Shown in pieces: positions 7,148-53,644 of a stretch of DNA of 64,000 bases (the stretch's first letter is position 1; each line of letters starts with the position of its first letter). The translations under genes were made by a program, and so were the position numbers. The notes beneath the pieces were generated by a model. That model did not search any database, had not been told where the DNA came from, and saw only the letters and a program-made list of their open reading frames with translations. Origin of the DNA: Escherichia phage AV123. The DNA lies in sequence record OR352953.1; one strand, given 5' to 3'.

Positions 7148-7436
7148 TAATGTTTAGAACATTGGCTATAATATAAGCTATCCAATAATAAACATGGTGA
7201 ATAATGACACTGATGATCATAATGCGCCACCCTCCAGGGGGCGCTATGTGAACACAAAGAAATCTTTCTTGTCAAGAAAAATATCACCATTATTGCGCAA
7301 AATTATTTATATCTGAATAGATGATTTTTCATACTATTGCCCCCTTGATTATTACCATTTGTTGAGCCTACTTTCTTAAAAGCGCAATAAAATAGAATTA
7401 TATTGATTTTTAGTCGGTTTTATAGTACAGAAAGTA

Positions 7437-7458
7437 TGCAAATGATAATCATTATCAG
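7437..7458. promoter_or_regulatory. Fur-box-like operator (AATGATAATCATTATC)
   Basis: 16 contiguous nt identical to the 3' part of the enterobacterial Fur consensus GATAATGATAATCATTATC; related copies at 6521, 6578 and 7624-7654. Confidence 0.3.
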
Positions 7459-20150: not shown

Positions 20151-20963
20151 TTACTTAGTCAAATGATCTTCTATCATTTTTATGAAAGCAGGATTGCTAA
20201 AAGCATCTGCTGCCTTTTCTCTATAAACAAAGACTCCTCTATCTTCGTAAAGAAGAGTTTCTTCGTAATTAATTCCTGGGTTAACAACAATCATTTTTGT
20301 ACCCATAGTAAGTGCAGGGAATAATTCCCAATTAAAATTGATAACTTGGTTTGAACATCCTACTACAACAACCAAATCTTGCATGGTCAAAGTATCAAAC
20401 AAGTGAGCCATATCTGCATACAAAGGTGCAGCCTCACCAAAAAATACAACATTAGGCTTCACCCAGTTATAATCATCTATGTTTATACTATTGTAACCAA
20501 TGTCTACCAGTGTTTTGTAATCTCCAGGATGCATACGGTAAACTACTTCAGGGAGATACCCGTGCACGTGAATAACAGAATCCCTGTCCACACCTGCTCG
20601 CTCTAGTAGATCATCGACGTTTGTTGTCAAGTTTACTACTTGGTTAGGATATTCCTTAAACCACTTTGCTATTTGAATATGTGCAGCATTAGGTTGTACA
20701 TCTTTAAGCTCAACACGTCTTTTGTTATAAAATTCGTGTGTTTTGGCATATAAGTCCATACCGTTCTCGTCTACACCACCGACCACTGGAAGATCTGGAG
20801 ATGTTCTCACACGATAACCTGCTTGGAAAGCTCCAATATCGCAGACCTCTTCTAAGTCATATTCTTCCCATAAGGCACGACCACTATCTGTGTCTGTTCG
20901 GAACGTTCGAATCCCACTGTCTGCACTTAAACCTGCGCCACTAACAAAAATTACTCTTCGCAT
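20151..20963 (-). CDS. Sir2-family (sirtuin-like) NAD+-dependent protein (270 aa)
   Basis: GAGLSADSGIRTFR (cf. sirtuin GAGIS..SGIPDFR), TTNVDDL (cf. TQNIDGL), HVHG catalytic His, VVFFGE, VVVGCS; no CxxC zinc module seen. Confidence 0.7.
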   Translation of the reverse strand: MRRVIFVSGAGLSADSGIRTFRTDTDSGRALWEEYDLEEVCDIGAFQAGYRVRTSPDLPVVGGVDENGMDLYAKTHEFYNKRRVELKDVQPNAAHIQIAKWFKEYPNQVVNLTTNVDDLLERAGVDRDSVIHVHGYLPEVVYRMHPGDYKTLVDIGYNSINIDDYNWVKPNVVFFGEAAPLYADMAHLFDTLTMQDLVVVVGCSNQVINFNWELFPALTMGTKMIVVNPGINYEETLLYEDRGVFVYREKAADAFSNPAFIKMIEDHLTK

Positions 20964-22294: not shown

Positions 22295-23284
22295 CTATTC
22301 CTCCATACATTTAAGAATATGTGCAATGACAGGTATAGTCCAACCGTTACCTAACATCTTATATGCTTGTGTGTTACTACTCACTTTAAAGTAGTCATCT
22401 GGCACACCTTGCAAACGGCAACACTCTTTAACGGTTAACTTTCTATAATGTACGCCTTCACTCAATTTTTCAAAAGCATCTAAATATCTTCCAGGTGGAA
22501 TGTAAGCTAATAGTACGTCTTTCGGCACAGTCGTGAGGCAACGAGTTTTTTCACTGTCCTGAACTTCCAAACAATGTACCAAACGATCAGTTTTAGATGT
22601 ACTACGTTTGCCATTTTCATTAATTCTACGCCCATATATTGCTGCTGGATAAAAAACCAGTTGTCTGCGACTCTTTTCAAAATACTGTTCTATATTGCCA
22701 CCTTTGGCATAATTTGCATCTATGCAATAAGCCTTATCTCTGTCTACAATACTATCATCTTCAATGATATCTTGCAATACTTCATTGGTAATCTCCCAGG
22801 GTTTTATTTCCCAGTTGCACCAGTATAAACGTTGTCTATTCTGTGCCGTGAAATCTGCGGAGTTAATGAATACGGGATCAACACCTAAGTAACTTGTGAT
22901 CACGTTTTCCCACTCCACTTTCATCTTAACGTTTTCAAGCATGAACTTAACATTAGGGTTAAACTTTTTAATATGTTCAAGAATTTCAACATATTCGAAG
23001 AATAGCTTAGATCGCGGATCTTGAAAGTTCAAACCCTTACCAGAAGAAGAGAAGCCTTGACACGGACTACCACCTAACAAAAGATCAATTTCTCCCCACG
23101 GGATATCCCATTCTCTCCATTTTGTAACATCACCTAACTGAATAATATCTGGAAAATTTGCTTGGCTTTCAGCTATGGCAAATTTGTCTAATTCTGAAGC
23201 ATAATATGTATCTACTTCAATACCTGCACTTTTTAGCGCAAGCATTCCTCCTGACATACCATCAAAAAGACTTAAAACTTTCAT
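22295..23284 (-). CDS. DNA (cytosine-5)-methyltransferase (329 aa)
   Basis: FDGMSGG (AdoMet motif I), GGSPCQGFS (PCQ catalytic motif IV), ENV motif. Confidence 0.8.
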   Translation of the reverse strand: MKVLSLFDGMSGGMLALKSAGIEVDTYYASELDKFAIAESQANFPDIIQLGDVTKWREWDIPWGEIDLLLGGSPCQGFSSSGKGLNFQDPRSKLFFEYVEILEHIKKFNPNVKFMLENVKMKVEWENVITSYLGVDPVFINSADFTAQNRQRLYWCNWEIKPWEITNEVLQDIIEDDSIVDRDKAYCIDANYAKGGNIEQYFEKSRRQLVFYPAAIYGRRINENGKRSTSKTDRLVHCLEVQDSEKTRCLTTVPKDVLLAYIPPGRYLDAFEKLSEGVHYRKLTVKECCRLQGVPDDYFKVSSNTQAYKMLGNGWTIPVIAHILKCMEE

Positions 23285-48069: not shown

Positions 48070-48082
48070 AATACCTCCAATA

Positions 48083-48098
48083 AGCCCCCGAAGGGGCT
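48083..48098 (-). terminator. intergenic GC hairpin AGCCCC-CGAA-GGGGCT
   Basis: hairpin between two minus-strand genes. Confidence 0.4.
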
Positions 48099-48105
48099 TT
48101 ATTTC

Positions 48106-48828
48106 TTAAGCAATGATTGCTGCGATATTAGGTTTAACAAAGGTAGATGGTTTCATAATTTTACCTTTATCATCAAAGAATACGTACACCTTTTGAACTT
48201 CGTTATATACAGCATGTACCCCAGTATAAGAACCTTCTGCACGATCTTTGCTTCGCATCTCGATAGCATCGCACTCTTTTTCAAGAGCTTCAATAATATC
48301 CTTAGTTTCCCAAATAGCCAGGAGTTGCTTCTTGGTAGGATACTTGGACTCATTGCTATTCAACACTTCACGCATAACCTTCTTCTCGTTATAAACAGAA
48401 CGCACCAAAGTATCTCGTGCCATACGGGTAAGTGTAAGAGACATTAAGGCAAATTGCAAGTCATTTTCTACCATTTTATCAAATTCAATGATAACATCGT
48501 AAATGTTTTCTGCCAGAACATCCCCTGTCGGCATTTCCAGAGCTTTATCAACACCTTCTTTACCAAAGAACATAAATGCCAGGTAGGAGGCTACCACAAA
48601 AATATCTGCTGCTGCATCAAGTAATTCAACGTGATCATTTTCCTGTGCTGCTGCTTGGAACTCTTTAAGTTCTTCTCGTACAAAAGAAAGTTGAGCTTCA
48701 AACATCTCTTGAGTAAATTCTGGAGTTACTCCACCACGTGCCTTAGCATTCCAAGCAACAATTTGATCGGCAGCTTTGATAAAGAAGCTATTGTCCACTT
48801 TTACTTGTTTGAAAAAATTCTCGATCAT
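48106..48828 (-). CDS. MazG-like nucleotide pyrophosphohydrolase, tentative
   Basis: REELKEF ... DHVELLDAAADIFVV resembles the MazG acidic EExxE...D metal-binding motif. Confidence 0.35.
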   Translation of the reverse strand: MIENFFKQVKVDNSFFIKAADQIVAWNAKARGGVTPEFTQEMFEAQLSFVREELKEFQAAAQENDHVELLDAAADIFVVASYLAFMFFGKEGVDKALEMPTGDVLAENIYDVIIEFDKMVENDLQFALMSLTLTRMARDTLVRSVYNEKKVMREVLNSNESKYPTKKQLLAIWETKDIIEALEKECDAIEMRSKDRAEGSYTGVHAVYNEVQKVYVFFDDKGKIMKPSTFVKPNIAAIIA

Positions 48829-49025: not shown

Positions 49026-50141
49026 TTACTCTGCTGGTTCCCAAGTACCTGGAATCATCTTACGTACACGTACCCCAACAGGCTTAGTAGGAATACCTTC
49101 GTCTGAAAATTCTTCGTACTCAATTTCAACAAATTGACCAATAAGTGTCAAAGCATTTTCTTCTTTACGATAGTTAATGGTTTCATCTGAATCCTTACGC
49201 ATCAGGAATTCGACTACTTTACCATTTTCCATCTCTCCTGTCAATACCCCGTCACCATTTTTATCACGCTTTGCACTTACCACTTTAACTTCAAGCGTCT
49301 GCCGTGGTTTACGTTTAATAACATCATAAGAACGTTTATCAAACTCGTAAACACCTTGTGCGTTACGATACACCACACCTTCCGCTTTCTCACGTAGAGC
49401 TTTTGCATAGAAAGCATCAAACTGCTCTTGGTTTTCAATGTACTCTGTATGTACTACACAAATGAGTTCATCTAAACCCTTATCTTCAACAACTTCTTTT
49501 AGAGCAGCCAAAACTTGAACCCTCTTCTCAAATGGTACAGATGGCACGGGAACATCATATACATAGTATTTAAGAAGCGGAGTGTTAGCATTATGCTTTT
49601 TCCACGCACTATTAATTTGTTGAAGGCTAAGGATACCCAAACCAGCAAAAACTTCACCGTCAAGAGGATGACCAACCACTTCTTTAATGAAGGTTGGAAT
49701 TTCTTCCCAGTGAGGTGGGAGTTTATATACCTCTCCAGCTTTAGATAAACATTCACCTTGCATGTTAATCATTGAACGTAGACCATTCAATTTATATTGT
49801 GCATAACCTGGGAACAAAACACGATCAGCATAATCTTTATAATCCTGACATTTCATGGGTGTAGAAGGAACATGGTTTTCAGCTTCCTCTTTTGTTTTAT
49901 AATACCCATTCTTAAGTTGCTTTGTCCATTTGGCAAGAGCTTCTATTTCAGCTTGTTCTTCTGCTGTTGTTTCATTTGAGCGACCAATATTTTTAGGTTC
50001 TGCCGTATAAGATTTGCTAGTGATCTTTCCACCTAATTGACCATGAGCAACAGTTACAACACTACCTTCGGTATAGACTGACCACTGTCTAATTTTACCT
50101 GTAGAAGTTTTACCATATAATGTAGGATTAGTTTGTTTCAT
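49026..50141 (-). CDS. ATP-dependent DNA ligase (covalent nucleotidyltransferase)
   Basis: motif I KLNGLR (KxNG variant), motif IV EGVVYR, motif V KRK; internal ATG with GGAGG RBS. Confidence 0.6.
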   Translation of the reverse strand: MKQTNPTLYGKTSTGKIRQWSVYTEGSVVTVAHGQLGGKITSKSYTAEPKNIGRSNETTAEEQAEIEALAKWTKQLKNGYYKTKEEAENHVPSTPMKCQDYKDYADRVLFPGYAQYKLNGLRSMINMQGECLSKAGEVYKLPPHWEEIPTFIKEVVGHPLDGEVFAGLGILSLQQINSAWKKHNANTPLLKYYVYDVPVPSVPFEKRVQVLAALKEVVEDKGLDELICVVHTEYIENQEQFDAFYAKALREKAEGVVYRNAQGVYEFDKRSYDVIKRKPRQTLEVKVVSAKRDKNGDGVLTGEMENGKVVEFLMRKDSDETINYRKEENALTLIGQFVEIEYEEFSDEGIPTKPVGVRVRKMIPGTWEPAE

Positions 50142-50331
50142 CTTTAACCTCCAGTTGCGAAAGAACCCATTTAGCCATTTCAATTTCACCGTGTAGTCTG
50201 CCTAGTTCATAGGCATCATCAATATTACCACCAGTGTAATCATCCACCATAAAGTAAGGATCTTCACTACTGTTAGGCGCGTTTGCAATTCTCGTTAGTT
50301 CTTCAATAAATGTCATAGTTAACCTTACCAA
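50128..50331 (-). CDS. hypothetical protein (67 aa)
   Basis: track ORF. Confidence 0.45.
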   Translation of the reverse strand: MVRLTMTFIEELTRIANAPNSSEDPYFMVDDYTGGNIDDAYELGRLHGEIEMAKWVLSQLEVKDETN

Positions 50332-50861: not shown

Positions 50862-51266
50862 TTATTGTAGCTTAAGTGAACTGCGAAGACGTTCCTCTTG
50901 CTGATCACGAATATGTTGTGGAACCTCATGAATTGAATCGTTACCGTGCCTATTCTCCACAACTAAAGAAATAACTTGATAACCAAACTCTTCAGCAAGA
51001 GTTAAATAAGGTTTAAGTTCTTTTTCTGTAGTAGAGGTATTAGAAACAATAATCTTTTCAACACCATACTGCATATATTTTTGTACTTTGACACGACACC
51101 ATTGGTGTGCTTTATGGATATTCTCTTGTTTCCACTCATACACACCATCTTCAGTGTAGTGGTATTGATCTGCCTCACAAATAGGCCAATGATTTTCAGA
51201 GATAATTTCTGCTACTGTAGATTTACCTGCACCTGAAACACCACGTAAAATGATAAGTTGTTTCAT
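50862..51266 (-). CDS. P-loop kinase, polynucleotide 5'-kinase-like
   Basis: ILRGVSGAGKST Walker A resembles the T4 Pnk kinase-domain N-terminus; adjacent to ligase and phosphoesterase. Confidence 0.5.
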   Translation of the reverse strand: MKQLIILRGVSGAGKSTVAEIISENHWPICEADQYHYTEDGVYEWKQENIHKAHQWCRVKVQKYMQYGVEKIIVSNTSTTEKELKPYLTLAEEFGYQVISLVVENRHGNDSIHEVPQHIRDQQEERLRSSLKLQ

Positions 51267-52199
51267 TTAGCCTCCAAAGAAGTTTTCTATTTCTTTACGT
51301 CGCTCTTGTGGATCGAGAGCAGCCCATTGAGCCTTCGTAAATTTATTTCGAAGCCATTCTAGCAAAGTATAATATTCTTCGTCAACAATTTGTTTAGCAT
51401 TGTTTGGGTTGTCCCAAATCATATCCCACTTCTTATTGCCACCACGCATAAGGAATTTCTTAGCAAGATAGTATGGTGACTTAATCTTTAAGAGTAAGTT
51501 AAACGGATAGTTTGTTTCACGAACAACAAAGCCTTCGTGTCTACAATGTTTAGACATTTCAACAACATCTGAAAATTTAATCATTGGATAAACTTCAGGA
51601 CGTTTAAATTTTGTAATAGATGCAATCCCATCAAGAACACCTTCAGGTAACATGAAACTTGTCCCATCAAGATTTTGAATTCTTGCTCCAATTAAGTATG
51701 CGCCTGGTTCTTCTTCGACAATATGTGGATCAGAAGGATCACAGATTTCAAAAAGGAAAGTTGCTTTTGCACTTTCTGTCCACTTAATGAAATACTCTAT
51801 GTCATCACACTCGGAAACAATACGGTTCTTGGCAATAGTTGCAAAGTCTGATTCTAGGCTTCCTGTTGTTGATACAACAAGTTTCCCTTTGTACACACCT
51901 ACAGATGCCATAAAACCGTTTACTTTACGGACAGCATCTACAAATTCATCTCCTGGAAGATCTGTACCATTCTCAAAACGATTAAAGATTTTAGTAAAAG
52001 GCCAAATAACAACATTGTCTTCTGAGTCAACAACCAACCCACGACAATCTAAAAGTCGTTTGTCAACGTTCCACAAGTTATCCCAGAATACATTGTTTTT
52101 GTATTTAAGTACAGCAAGACCAGCATACTCTCCAGATTTAACTTCTTTTTTATGCACTAAACCTTTTGCAATCAGGTCATCACAATTGAACTTAGCCAC
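51267..52199 (-). CDS. RNA ligase-like nucleotidyltransferase
   Basis: motif I KVNGF (KxNG), motif IV EGFVVR, motif V KIKS. Confidence 0.55.
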   Translation of the reverse strand: MAKFNCDDLIAKGLVHKKEVKSGEYAGLAVLKYKNNVFWDNLWNVDKRLLDCRGLVVDSEDNVVIWPFTKIFNRFENGTDLPGDEFVDAVRKVNGFMASVGVYKGKLVVSTTGSLESDFATIAKNRIVSECDDIEYFIKWTESAKATFLFEICDPSDPHIVEEEPGAYLIGARIQNLDGTSFMLPEGVLDGIASITKFKRPEVYPMIKFSDVVEMSKHCRHEGFVVRETNYPFNLLLKIKSPYYLAKKFLMRGGNKKWDMIWDNPNNAKQIVDEEYYTLLEWLRNKFTKAQWAALDPQERRKEIENFFGG

Positions 52200-52200
52200 C

Positions 52201-52752
52201 TTAATCTCCTTTGATTATCTTATGATGATCTACAACAATAATATCACGCTTACCCATAATAGAGATGATTTCGTCAAAATGCAAGATTTTCCCGTGTGCA
52301 TCCCAACCAACATCCAACATTTTCCCATACAAATGATCAGGGAATGATCCGTGAGAGTGTCCGTGTAGCATGATTGATCCATGCCCTTGTTTATTCCAGG
52401 CAGCCATAGGGTAATGACTTAAGACGAAGAACAGCTTCTGATATTTCACTTCGTCATAATACACAACTTCTCCATACTCTGCAAGCACTTTTCTGTGTTT
52501 ACTGTAATCATGGTTCCCAACACAGTAAGTAATATCCCCTTGGAGACGGGAAGCAATCTTACGGGTATCTTCTTCAGTCCCGAAACAGAAGTCCCCAAGA
52601 TGGTACATCTTTACTCCTGGTGTTGTGGCACATTTATTCCATGCTTCGATCAGTGCTTCTGTCATATGCTCCATATCTTCCCACGGGCGATATTCAGGAG
52701 CAAACTCTCGGATACGTTTGTGCATAAAATGCAAATCACTTGTAATAAACAT
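52201..52752 (-). CDS. calcineurin-like metallophosphoesterase (candidate 2',3'/3'-phosphatase)
   Basis: SDLHF, GDFCFG, GNHD motifs. Confidence 0.7.
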   Translation of the reverse strand: MFITSDLHFMHKRIREFAPEYRPWEDMEHMTEALIEAWNKCATTPGVKMYHLGDFCFGTEEDTRKIASRLQGDITYCVGNHDYSKHRKVLAEYGEVVYYDEVKYQKLFFVLSHYPMAAWNKQGHGSIMLHGHSHGSFPDHLYGKMLDVGWDAHGKILHFDEIISIMGKRDIIVVDHHKIIKGD

Positions 52753-53114
52753 TAGTATAATCCCTCGCTGAATAGTTCACTGTTGTGACCATTTCTTTCG
52801 TAGTTAATTTGTTTGGCGTTATCTGCAATGACATAAGCATCTTTGCGACTCCACCAGTTATAATACTGATCAATAAACCCTTGATTATCAGGTAAGCAAA
52901 ACAGTTTATCGATCAATCCTGCATCTTTTAAAACATTAAGTTGTGCAGATAGTACAGGATTTGCATGCCTAACACAAGGAATAATTAACTCTTCGCCATT
53001 GTTAAGAATATACTTGTTCGCAGCGCAGACTATAACACGTTGAGCATAGTGATCCTCACCAATCCAAGTAAGAGGTTGGTAACAAATATCATGTTGATTA
53101 GTAGCGCACATCAA
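52752..53114 (-). CDS. hypothetical protein (120 aa)
   Basis: track ORF. Confidence 0.5.
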   Translation of the reverse strand: MMCATNQHDICYQPLTWIGEDHYAQRVIVCAANKYILNNGEELIIPCVRHANPVLSAQLNVLKDAGLIDKLFCLPDNQGFIDQYYNWWSRKDAYVIADNAKQINYERNGHNSELFSEGLY

Positions 53115-53269
53115 TTTTCTCCATACTCTTTTAATCTATCAGCGAAAAAACTGTAATCAGGAAGTAAAAGATCATTACTCGTATCGCTACAGTTTTCTTC
53201 CTCTTTATAGATAAAATGCCCTTCATCCTCTTCTTGCTCTGACCAGACTGAGTAATGCATAATACCTAC

Positions 53270-53644
53270 TTAATAGTTAACACGTTTAATTTCAACACCA
53301 TAGGATGAAATAAAATTTTCCTTAGCTAACATATATTTACCAGCAGCAGAAGGATTTGATGTATGAACATAGATAGTTTTAAGAGCATCCCATTCACCAG
53401 CGTACAACATACATTCTACATCTAAGAACGCATGATAGCCTTCTTGATCTTCCCCAAGATCATTATCGAAGTGTATTTCTGAGATATTATTGAAATTATC
53501 TTCATCTGAAACAAAAGATGACCAATCCCCAAAAGATTTTAACCAAATGGCATCCTCATAACCATAATCTTTAGGATCTCTTAAATCGTCTAACCAAAGA
53601 ATTTTAGCCACTATCAACACCCTTCCTGTTTCTCTTCTTTCCAA
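53270..53644 (-). CDS. hypothetical protein (124 aa)
   Basis: track ORF; conserved-looking WLDDLRDP, HFDNDLG, VHTSNP segments of unknown family. Confidence 0.5.
   Translation of the reverse strand: MERRETGRVLIVAKILWLDDLRDPKDYGYEDAIWLKSFGDWSSFVSDEDNFNNISEIHFDNDLGEDQEGYHAFLDVECMLYAGEWDALKTIYVHTSNPSAAGKYMLAKENFISSYGVEIKRVNY

Follow-up and report, generated by a model that had tools for sequence, protein, structure and literature searches.

A predicted RNA end-healing and sealing operon made of separate small proteins in Escherichia phage AV123

Introduction

Cleavage of tRNA is a frequent end-point of anti-phage systems, including PrrC, RloC, PARIS, some retrons, and Cas13, and phages answer it either with replacement tRNAs or with repair. 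In phage T4, the polynucleotide kinase-phosphatase Pnkp and RNA ligase 1 (Rnl1) form a repair pathway that counters the anticodon nuclease PrrC. Here we describe a cassette of three small genes, predicted to encode a metallophosphoesterase, an RNA ligase, and a P-loop kinase, in a 64,000-nt stretch of Escherichia phage AV123 (OR352953.1). This whole stretch is called the window below, and all positions refer to it. We consider it likely that the phage uses the cassette to heal and seal RNA ends, as an operon of the T4 Pnkp/Rnl1 type made up of separate small proteins, and that the operon most likely mends tRNAs cut by host defenses.

The cassette is already known as a prediction, both from the public annotation of this phage group and from the comparative analysis of Iyer, Burroughs, Anantharaman, and Aravind, who described a "type 2" sirtuin-linked RNA-repair neighborhood in rV5 and Mydo (Viruses 14:1977, 2022; PMC9503650, section 3.7.3). 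The Mydo record displays this "type 2" layout. In GenBank, the genes are labeled "putative phosphoesterase", "RNA ligase", and "polynucleotide kinase" or "ATPase", and the ligase of phages phi92 and Paula is labeled "putative RNA ligase / RNA repair". To this we add that the three genes are a conserved core across many phage lineages, that kinase-ligase fusions exist, that the phosphoesterase is of the aq_1665 group, and that the ligase lacks the C-terminal domain of T4 Rnl1 and is equidistant from Rnl1 and the fungal tRNA ligase Trl1. We also point out a candidate 2'-phosphate triad in the ligase sequence. The cassette is a well-defined set of small proteins amenable to experiment, with a chemistry of either the T4 type or the yeast type.

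Organization of the operon

Across 3.2 kb, the region shares 99.3% identity with Escherichia phage EmilieFrey (Bas61); with phage phi92 (genus Justusliebigvirus, Stephanstirmvirinae), the identity is 97%. The phi92 counterparts of the phosphoesterase, ligase, and kinase are gp097, gp096, and gp095, respectively. The three genes, with motifs taken from their translations, are as follows.

52201..52752, minus strand: predicted binuclear metallophosphoesterase (phi92 gp097), 183 aa; MFITSDLHF, LGDFCFG, VGNHD, LHGHSHG
51267..52199, minus strand: predicted ATP-dependent RNA ligase (phi92 gp096), 310 aa, GTG start; RKVNGF, HEGFVVR, LKIKS
50862..51266, minus strand: predicted stand-alone P-loop kinase (phi92 gp095), 134 aa; RGVSGAGKST

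The three open reading frames (ORFs) abut on the minus strand and are transcribed in the order phosphoesterase, ligase, kinase. The stop codon of the preceding gene, gp098, overlaps the start of the phosphoesterase gene (TAATG), a single base separates the phosphoesterase stop from the GTG of the ligase (TAA-G-GTG), and no base lies between the ligase stop and the kinase start (TAA-ATG). Each start has a GGAG-type ribosome binding site located within the preceding gene. The cassette genes are translationally coupled.

A sequence-only reading of the window, which preceded this analysis, had placed three minus-strand genes at 50862-52752 in this order of transcription and had taken the kinase and the phosphatase to be separate genes. 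The ORF list matches these positions exactly and contains two distinct ORFs for the kinase and the phosphatase, and all the motif strings quoted in that reading (SDLHF, GDFCFG, GNHD, KVNGF, EGFVVR, KIKS, and GVSGAGKST) were found in the translations. Its description of the cassette as consisting of three genes was right insofar as the trio is the conserved core. However, the operon itself is bigger: its tightly packed genes include one for a cREC-domain protein upstream of the phosphoesterase, with two small genes in between.

The cassette is located in a 36-kb leftward block of replication and nucleotide-metabolism genes. The GC skew changes sign at ~20000 and ~56000, that is, at both ends of this block, where the coding strand switches. 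The sole convincing terminator-like hairpin was found at 48074-48099, after a MazG-like gene, and a scan for sigma-70 promoters was uninformative (31 sites found versus 31 expected). Homologues of the cassette proteins number in the thousands, and this abundance, together with the Pfam and PHROG scores reported below, puts the three-gene observation far beyond chance.

The RNA ligase

Residues 52-244 of the ligase match the Pfam family RNA_lig_T4_1 (1.5e-13, above the gathering score), and the protein matches phrog_562 at 1e-66. Searched against solved structures, the single ligase sequence gave no match, and a profile of 18 family members found T4 RNA ligase 1 alone (1.6e-9); this profile search did not reach Trl1 even at E <= 10. 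In the profile alignment, R53, K70, F72, K92, and G95 of the ligase fall on R54, K75, F77, K99, and G102 of T4 Rnl1, and E151, E222, G223, K238, and K240 fall on E159, E227, G228, K240, and K242, with the T4 numbering counted off the printed alignment, which is itself offset by one. These T4 residues contact ATP and are essential (PMC6379707). Mutational work on the T4 enzyme agrees with this. Across 80 homologues with 40-98% identity, all ten ligase positions, R53 and K70 included, are invariant except F72, which varies between Phe and Tyr.

The protein had been described from its letters as a nucleotidyltransferase with ligase motifs, and the alignment bears this out, with K92/G95, E151, E222/G223, and K238/K240 aligned on T4 and retained in 80/80 homologues. 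The motif I lysine, whose possible absence on alignment had been raised as an objection, is K92 and is invariant in the same 80 sequences.

The AlphaFold model of the ligase is confident (predicted local distance difference test, pLDDT, 90.7). When this model was used in a Foldseek search, T4 Rnl1 and the ligase domain of fungal Trl1 (Trl1-LIG) came out on top with E-values of ~1e-12 to 1e-13, at an identity of only ~18-20% to the T4 ligase, gp63. The profile, residue conservation, model, and Foldseek results make the ligase a member of the group formed by the two tRNA-ligase clades. Its predicted fold places it in the Rnl1/Trl1 adenylyltransferase clade, at equal distance from the two. Behind motif V the protein ends in a C-terminal module of 66 residues with short helices, and no alignment reaches into this module.

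The P-loop kinase

The kinase matches Pfam AAA_33 (1.8e-10). Domain searches, which the sequence-only reading had suggested as a check, thus returned RNA_lig_T4_1 for the ligase and AAA_33 for the kinase, both above their gathering scores. Among PHROG families, the kinase matches phrog_2071 "ATPase" (5e-58) and phrog_505 "polynucleotide kinase" (1.3e-9). When a 20-member profile was searched against solved sequences, the best match was the kinase domain of Clostridium thermocellum Pnkp (4.4e-5, full length), and Capnocytophaga Pnkp1 (1.6e-4) and T4 Pnk (8e-4) were also matched. The profile further matches, across two short stretches, the Rhizopus kinase 9d8a (6.8e-5). This is most likely the RNA 5'-OH kinase that takes part in tRNA splicing as a stand-alone protein in Mucorales (PMC11571804).

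Residues G14, K15, T17, and D33 showed no variation among 74 homologues, and D33 aligns with D35, the general base of T4 Pnk. The protein had been read as polynucleotide-kinase-like, and this assignment agrees with its best solved relatives being Pnkp and T4 Pnk domains and with the invariant general-base Asp. The sequence comparison supports a position nearer to the polynucleotide kinases of RNA repair enzymes than to deoxynucleoside monophosphate (dNMP) kinases, and we propose that gp095 may be a 5'-OH RNA kinase.

A dNMP-kinase identity of gp095, which had been mentioned as a possible objection, has no support in the sequence, as dNMP kinases match it solely at the P-loop. This holds for the PHROG dNMP kinase family (9e-5) and thymidylate kinases, and the nucleotide kinases in the profile search were likewise P-loop-only matches (E >= 0.008).

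The metallophosphoesterase

The phosphoesterase matches phrog_547 "phosphoesterase" at 1.3e-54. Its Pfam match, to Metallophos_2, reaches 22 bits only and is under the gathering score. A profile of 19 homologues placed Aquifex aq_1665 (1xm7) first, at 7e-22, followed by GpdQ, MJ0936, and YfcE. The residues of the metal motifs, D6/H8, G53/D54, G79/N80/H81, H113, and G131/H132/H134, all show 95% or higher conservation across 64 homologues, and with all binuclear-metal motifs in place the earlier assignment to the calcineurin-type metallophosphoesterases stands. Judging from these residues, the protein is very likely an active enzyme, and we propose that gp097 could heal 2',3'-cyclic-phosphate or 3'-phosphate ends.

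Linkage of the three genes across phages

Linkage was examined in 80 IMG/VR loci encoding a ligase homologue (40-98% identity). Their six-frame ORFs were searched with two-round hidden Markov models, and a gene within 8 kb of the ligase was counted as a neighbor. The ligase had the kinase as a neighbor in 75 of the 80 loci and the phosphoesterase in 64, and in each case all but one of these neighbors were encoded on the ligase strand (74 and 63, respectively). The order phosphoesterase-ligase-kinase occurred in 36 loci, kinase-ligase-phosphoesterase in 22, kinase-ligase in 14, and other arrangements in eight. Since the gene order varies, the association of the three genes has outlived rearrangement.

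Twelve of the 80 loci (L049, L050, and L059-L068) carry a Rosetta-stone fusion of kinase and ligase, in which a single ORF of ~430 aa contains both AAA_33 and RNA_lig_T4_1 (e.g., 574-1872 in L066); the phosphoesterase is absent within 8 kb in these loci. Genes for cREC, sirtuin, and MazG proteins look like lineage-specific additions to the core of ligase, kinase, and phosphoesterase, since they were near the ligase in merely 12, 11, and 13 of the 80 loci, respectively.

Beyond this sample, the ligase family is present in 606 isolate phage records, including rV5-, phi92-, and phAPEC8-like phages and Pakpunavirus, as well as phages of Pseudomonas syringae, Vibrio, Aeromonas, and Acinetobacter, with Escherichia and Klebsiella also among the hosts. 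Pseudomonas phage K5, for example, has a phosphoesterase and, further along, the series RNA ligase, "ATPase", phosphoribosyl pyrophosphate (PRPP) synthetase, and nicotinamide phosphoribosyltransferase (NAMPT).

As a separate observation, several records labeled "Campylobacter phage" (MG065639, MG065650, MG065690, and others), with genomes of ~145 kb, showed 86-96% protein identity to these coliphage genes. The host labels of these records look doubtful.

Proposed function and its evaluation

We propose that the three proteins would act one after another on broken RNA. The metallophosphoesterase would take off the cyclic or 3' phosphate, and in this lineage the cREC protein would perhaps open the cyclic phosphate beforehand. 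The P-loop kinase would then add a phosphate to the 5'-OH. Finally, the ligase would adenylylate itself on Lys92, the AMP would pass to the 5'-phosphate, and the break would be sealed. An RNA heal-and-seal trio was also the core of the sequence-only reading, and these assignments held in the profile, structure, and synteny tests, with the genes linked and, in 12 loci, fused. We observed the gene structure, the protein families, the conservation of catalytic residues, the linkage, and the fusion directly; from these we infer an RNA or tRNA substrate, the exact end chemistry, and a role in counter-defense.

Several points weigh against this interpretation. The C-terminal domain of the T4 Rnl1 type (residues 255-374) is absent from the ligase, and in T4 Rnl1 this all-helical domain defines the clade and gives tRNA specificity. 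Just ~260 of the 310 ligase residues align, and the position of T4 Rnl1 K119 is an invariant Thr in the ligase family. In T4 Pnk, R38 stands three residues past the general-base Asp and binds the phosphate of the acceptor nucleotide. This Arg has no counterpart in the kinase family, where the 74 homologues mostly carry His (28), Phe (27), Leu (10), or Trp (five) at position 36, and never predominantly Arg; the E-values of the kinase profile against the PDB are modest as well (4e-5 to 1e-3).

The phosphoesterase is a further point of this kind, as its closest solved relative, aq_1665, is without known function and its profile matched no Pnkp or lambda phosphatase among solved sequences at E <= 1. 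The likening of the phosphatase to that of bacterial Pnkp, made from the letters, is therefore valid at the level of the binuclear superfamily only; the two share a superfamily, but the phage protein is aq_1665/Metallophos_2-like. In addition, kinase and ligase occur without the phosphoesterase in 14 loci, and in one locus with a fused kinase-ligase (L064), where we looked for a substitute 3'-end healer, none was recognizable. A literature search found no experiments on this ligase, kinase, or phosphoesterase family and, for the phi92-like phage group, no experimental report of rescue from tRNA-cleaving hosts.

Another point concerns a second ligase gene in the same block.

49026..50189, minus strand: ATP-dependent DNA ligase; Pfam DNA_ligase_A_M 4.3e-11, phrog_114 3e-75

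This gene is found four genes downstream from the kinase. In 43 of the 80 loci, a DNA ligase homologue counts as a neighbor of the RNA ligase (within 8 kb), always on the same strand. The kinase and the phosphoesterase could in principle prepare 5'-OH/3'-phosphate DNA for this nearby DNA ligase, in the manner of mammalian PNKP. T4 Pnkp also works on DNA, and the leftward block is rich in DNA-metabolism genes. However, the DNA ligase was never adjacent to the RNA ligase in any of these loci, and the fold of the RNA ligase is distant from those of DNA ligases. We consider such DNA-end healing very unlikely.

The window also contains a large tRNA array, as had been noted from the sequence.

59145..62200, plus strand: 15 tRNA genes (ARAGORN), in agreement with the phi92 annotation

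The array includes Lys(UUU), Tyr(GUA), Asn(GUU), Gln(UUG), and Thr(UGU) tRNAs, and two of its genes have a CAT anticodon. Known anticodon nucleases attack the Lys, Tyr, Asn, and Gln isoacceptors. The array fits as context and as a second means of surviving tRNA cleavage, and it is compatible with, but no proof of, a counter-defense role of the operon.

The array, at a distance of 7 kb, could also point to an RNA processing role for the cassette within the phage itself, such as the maturation or recycling of its 15 tRNAs or other transcripts; ARAGORN, however, saw no phage tRNA that was intron-containing or split. Alternatively, the ligase might mainly act as a tail fiber attachment factor, as T4 gp63 does in its second activity. 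"RNA ligase and tail fiber protein attachment catalyst" is the label of this family in PHROG and in many records, and phi92-like phages have several sets of tail fibers (PMC8594841). However, this label stems from T4 gp63, with which the ligase shares no more than the low identity given above. Every adenylyltransferase residue is strictly conserved and fusions with the kinase exist, which together argue for catalysis on nucleic-acid ends. We regard both self-processing and tail fiber attachment as very unlikely.

A possible 2'-phosphate-dependent route

The cassette might also follow yeast-type chemistry rather than the T4-type healing and sealing that we favor. In this alternative, cREC, or the phosphoesterase acting as a cyclic phosphodiesterase, would leave a 3'-OH,2'-phosphate end that is sealed by a 2'-phosphate-dependent ligase, and the junction 2'-phosphate would be removed with NAD+ by a Tpt1/KptA-like activity of the phage sirtuin or by the host KptA. 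The genes concerned, in addition to the cassette, are as follows.

53270..53611, minus strand: cREC protein (phi92 gp100); Pfam cREC_REC PF20274, 3.9e-13, 50.3 bits versus a cut-off of 27
20151..20963, minus strand: Sir2-family protein; Pfam SIR2 1.3e-22
55659-56552, plus strand: PRPP synthetase, divergent from the repair operon
56624-58357, plus strand: NAMPT (NAD salvage), divergent from the repair operon

Several features of the ligase point in this direction. H159, K248, and R252 are invariant in 80/80 homologues, on a par with the catalytic residues. H159, the last residue of the run D157-P158-H159, follows the motif III Glu by eight residues (+8). K248 and R252 are located in the first helix past motif V and follow the second Lys of this motif by eight and 12 residues (+8 and +12). 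The 2'-phosphate triad of fungal Trl1-LIG (CthLIG), His227, Arg334, and Arg337, has the spacings +9, +9, and +12 (PMC6379707, PMC11404444). The colinear residues of T4 Rnl1 are Ile167, His250, and Ser254, partly counted past the aligned portion. Motif IV of the ligase (EGFVVR) resembles that of the fungal enzyme (EGFVIR), the T4 sequence being EGYVAV, and the ligase model is equally near Trl1-LIG and T4 Rnl1. On the other hand, the triad correspondence is one of spacing from published numbering only, a Lys instead of an Arg takes the +8 position past motif V, and T4 has His250 and Lys253 close by.

The neighboring genes speak on both sides. A cREC gene is present in the operon, and the Aravind group predicted that the cREC domain processes cyclic phosphates (PMC7824862, PMC9503650). 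We used the GTG at 53611 as the start of this gene, following the EmilieFrey annotation, and D8, D9, R11, D49, and D51 of its product, which include receiver-type acidic residues, are conserved in 13 homologues. A sirtuin is encoded in the AV123 genome, and sirtuin genes stand beside the kinase in rV5-like phages and in Mydo; Iyer et al. proposed a role in 2'-phosphate removal for this sirtuin (PMC9503650). The sirtuin gene adjoins the cassette in 11 of the 80 loci, all of them rV5-like, and the AV123 protein is 57% identical to the sirtuin of one of these (L007; tblastn, E 9e-108). NAMPT and PRPP synthetase counted as neighbors of the ligase (within 8 kb) in 39 and 33 of the 80 loci, respectively, and the same proximity was seen in Pseudomonas phage K5 and Proteus phage Mydo.

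However, the cREC and sirtuin genes, each near the ligase in the small numbers of loci given above, are limited to rV5/phi92-like phages, whereas the phosphoesterase, which would suit full dephosphorylation, accompanies the ligase in 64. The Sir2 gene of AV123 lies 30 kb from the cassette at the far end of the leftward block, and the NAMPT and PRPP synthetase linkage may merely reflect a common region of auxiliary genes. A sirtuin within the operon was ruled out, with zero Sir2 matches among the operon ORFs.

We rate the yeast-type route, including its NAD+-dependent last step, as unlikely because the triad corresponds in spacing only and the phosphoesterase is far more widespread with the ligase than are cREC and the sirtuin. 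It would make the ligase a representative of an uncharacterised clade with its own short C-terminal module, reading the 3'-OH,2'-phosphate via His159, Lys248, and Arg252, an idea that we put forward as a doubtful one. If true, this would be the first case of fungal/plant tRNA-repair chemistry in a bacterial virus and would reveal one physiological way in which 2'-phosphate RNA junctions arise in bacteria. To our knowledge, no substrate is known for the bacterial Tpt1/KptA enzymes.

Other genes in and around the operon

Three further genes belong to the surroundings of the cassette.

52752..53111, minus strand: gp098, small conserved protein, 119 aa; phrog_839 1.3e-46, PF26092 in homologues
53111..53260, minus strand: gp099, acidic ORF, 49 aa, between cREC and gp098; annotated in EmilieFrey, Paula, and phi92
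48106..48828, minus strand: MazG-like nucleotide pyrophosphohydrolase; Pfam PRA-PH 3.2e-7, phrog_671; last gene of the transcription block that contains the cassette

The gp098 gene is translationally coupled between gp099 and the phosphoesterase, and its product has the invariant motifs RxxVCAANxY, RH, QGFIDQ, and LFSExLY. One source names its homologues "putative anti-restriction nuclease". A profile search of 1.8 billion representatives yielded 1025 remote homologues, in which the gp098 domain is frequently the C-terminal portion of longer proteins without a Pfam match; a Pfam scan of ten such longer relatives gave nothing informative. The AlphaFold2 model of gp098 (pLDDT 70) had no Foldseek match in the PDB at E <= 0.001. 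A gp098 homologue accompanies the ligase in only three of the 80 loci, among them the distant locus L075, where it shows 39% identity and lies directly upstream of the ligase (7184-7453). We did not count gp098 as a core part in view of this small number, and its membership of the module is uncertain. A family search with gp099 found no match.

The 13 loci counted above have a MazG-like gene no more than 8 kb from the ligase. Elsewhere in the window, a 329-aa ORF at 22295-23284 on the minus strand contains FDGMSGG and PCQGFS motifs, read off its translation, that are typical of C5 cytosine DNA methyltransferases.

Comparison with known RNA repair systems

The neighborhood described for rV5 and Mydo is the same module in sister lineages. 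Both it and the AV123 region have an orthologous T4-like tRNA ligase, cREC, a small kinase, MazG, and a calcineurin-like phosphoesterase, with a DNA ligase and NAMPT and PRPP synthetase close by. In AV123, the ligase, cREC, kinase, MazG, and phosphoesterase genes all lie inside 5.5 kb. However, the AV123 sirtuin gene, the only Sir2 gene there, is outside the neighborhood, the cREC gene is upstream of the phosphoesterase instead of between the ligase and the kinase, and AV123 has two additional small genes (gp098 and gp099). The phosphoesterase was called "occasional" by Iyer et al. (2022), whereas in our wider set of phages it was found with the ligase in four-fifths of the loci (64/80).

Compared with the tRNA repair of T4 by Pnkp (pseT) and RNA ligase 1 (gene 63), the three activities are the same, those of AV123 being predicted. 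The AV123 ligase has the Rnl1 adenylyltransferase domain, including the N-terminal subdomain and all catalytic residues, and the kinase is of the polynucleotide kinase clade with the same P-loop and general-base Asp. In contrast to T4, where one fused protein carries kinase and phosphatase and the ligase is encoded elsewhere, the AV123 trio consists of separate genes in one operon. The AV123 phosphatase is a binuclear metallophosphoesterase, whereas that of T4 is a HAD domain. Where the T4 ligase has its 120-aa tRNA-specificity domain, that of AV123 has a 66-aa C-terminal module, and neither Rnl1 K119 nor Pnk R38 is conserved in the AV123 families.

The bacterial Pnkp-Hen1 system, represented by C. 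thermocellum Pnkp, shares with AV123 a chemistry trio with a metallophosphoesterase as 3'-end healer, and of all solved proteins it is Pnkp, with its kinase domain, that matches the phage kinase best. However, the phage phosphoesterase is aq_1665-like, whereas that of Pnkp is lambda-phosphatase-like.

Fungal Trl1 (LIG-KIN-CPD) has no shared 3'-end healer with the phage cassette, which lacks a 2H cyclic phosphodiesterase and has a metallophosphoesterase and cREC instead, and the C-terminal module of the phage ligase, which is not aligned, is shorter than the five-helix C-terminal domain of Trl1. The adenylyltransferase domain is nevertheless as near to Trl1 as to T4 Rnl1, with motif IV EGFV[VI]R in both, and an invariant His and two basic residues have nearly the spacing of the 2'-phosphate triad. 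The split organization of the phage cassette, with a stand-alone ligase and a stand-alone kinase, is also that of the Mucorales LIG and KIN proteins (PMC10946426, PMC11571804).

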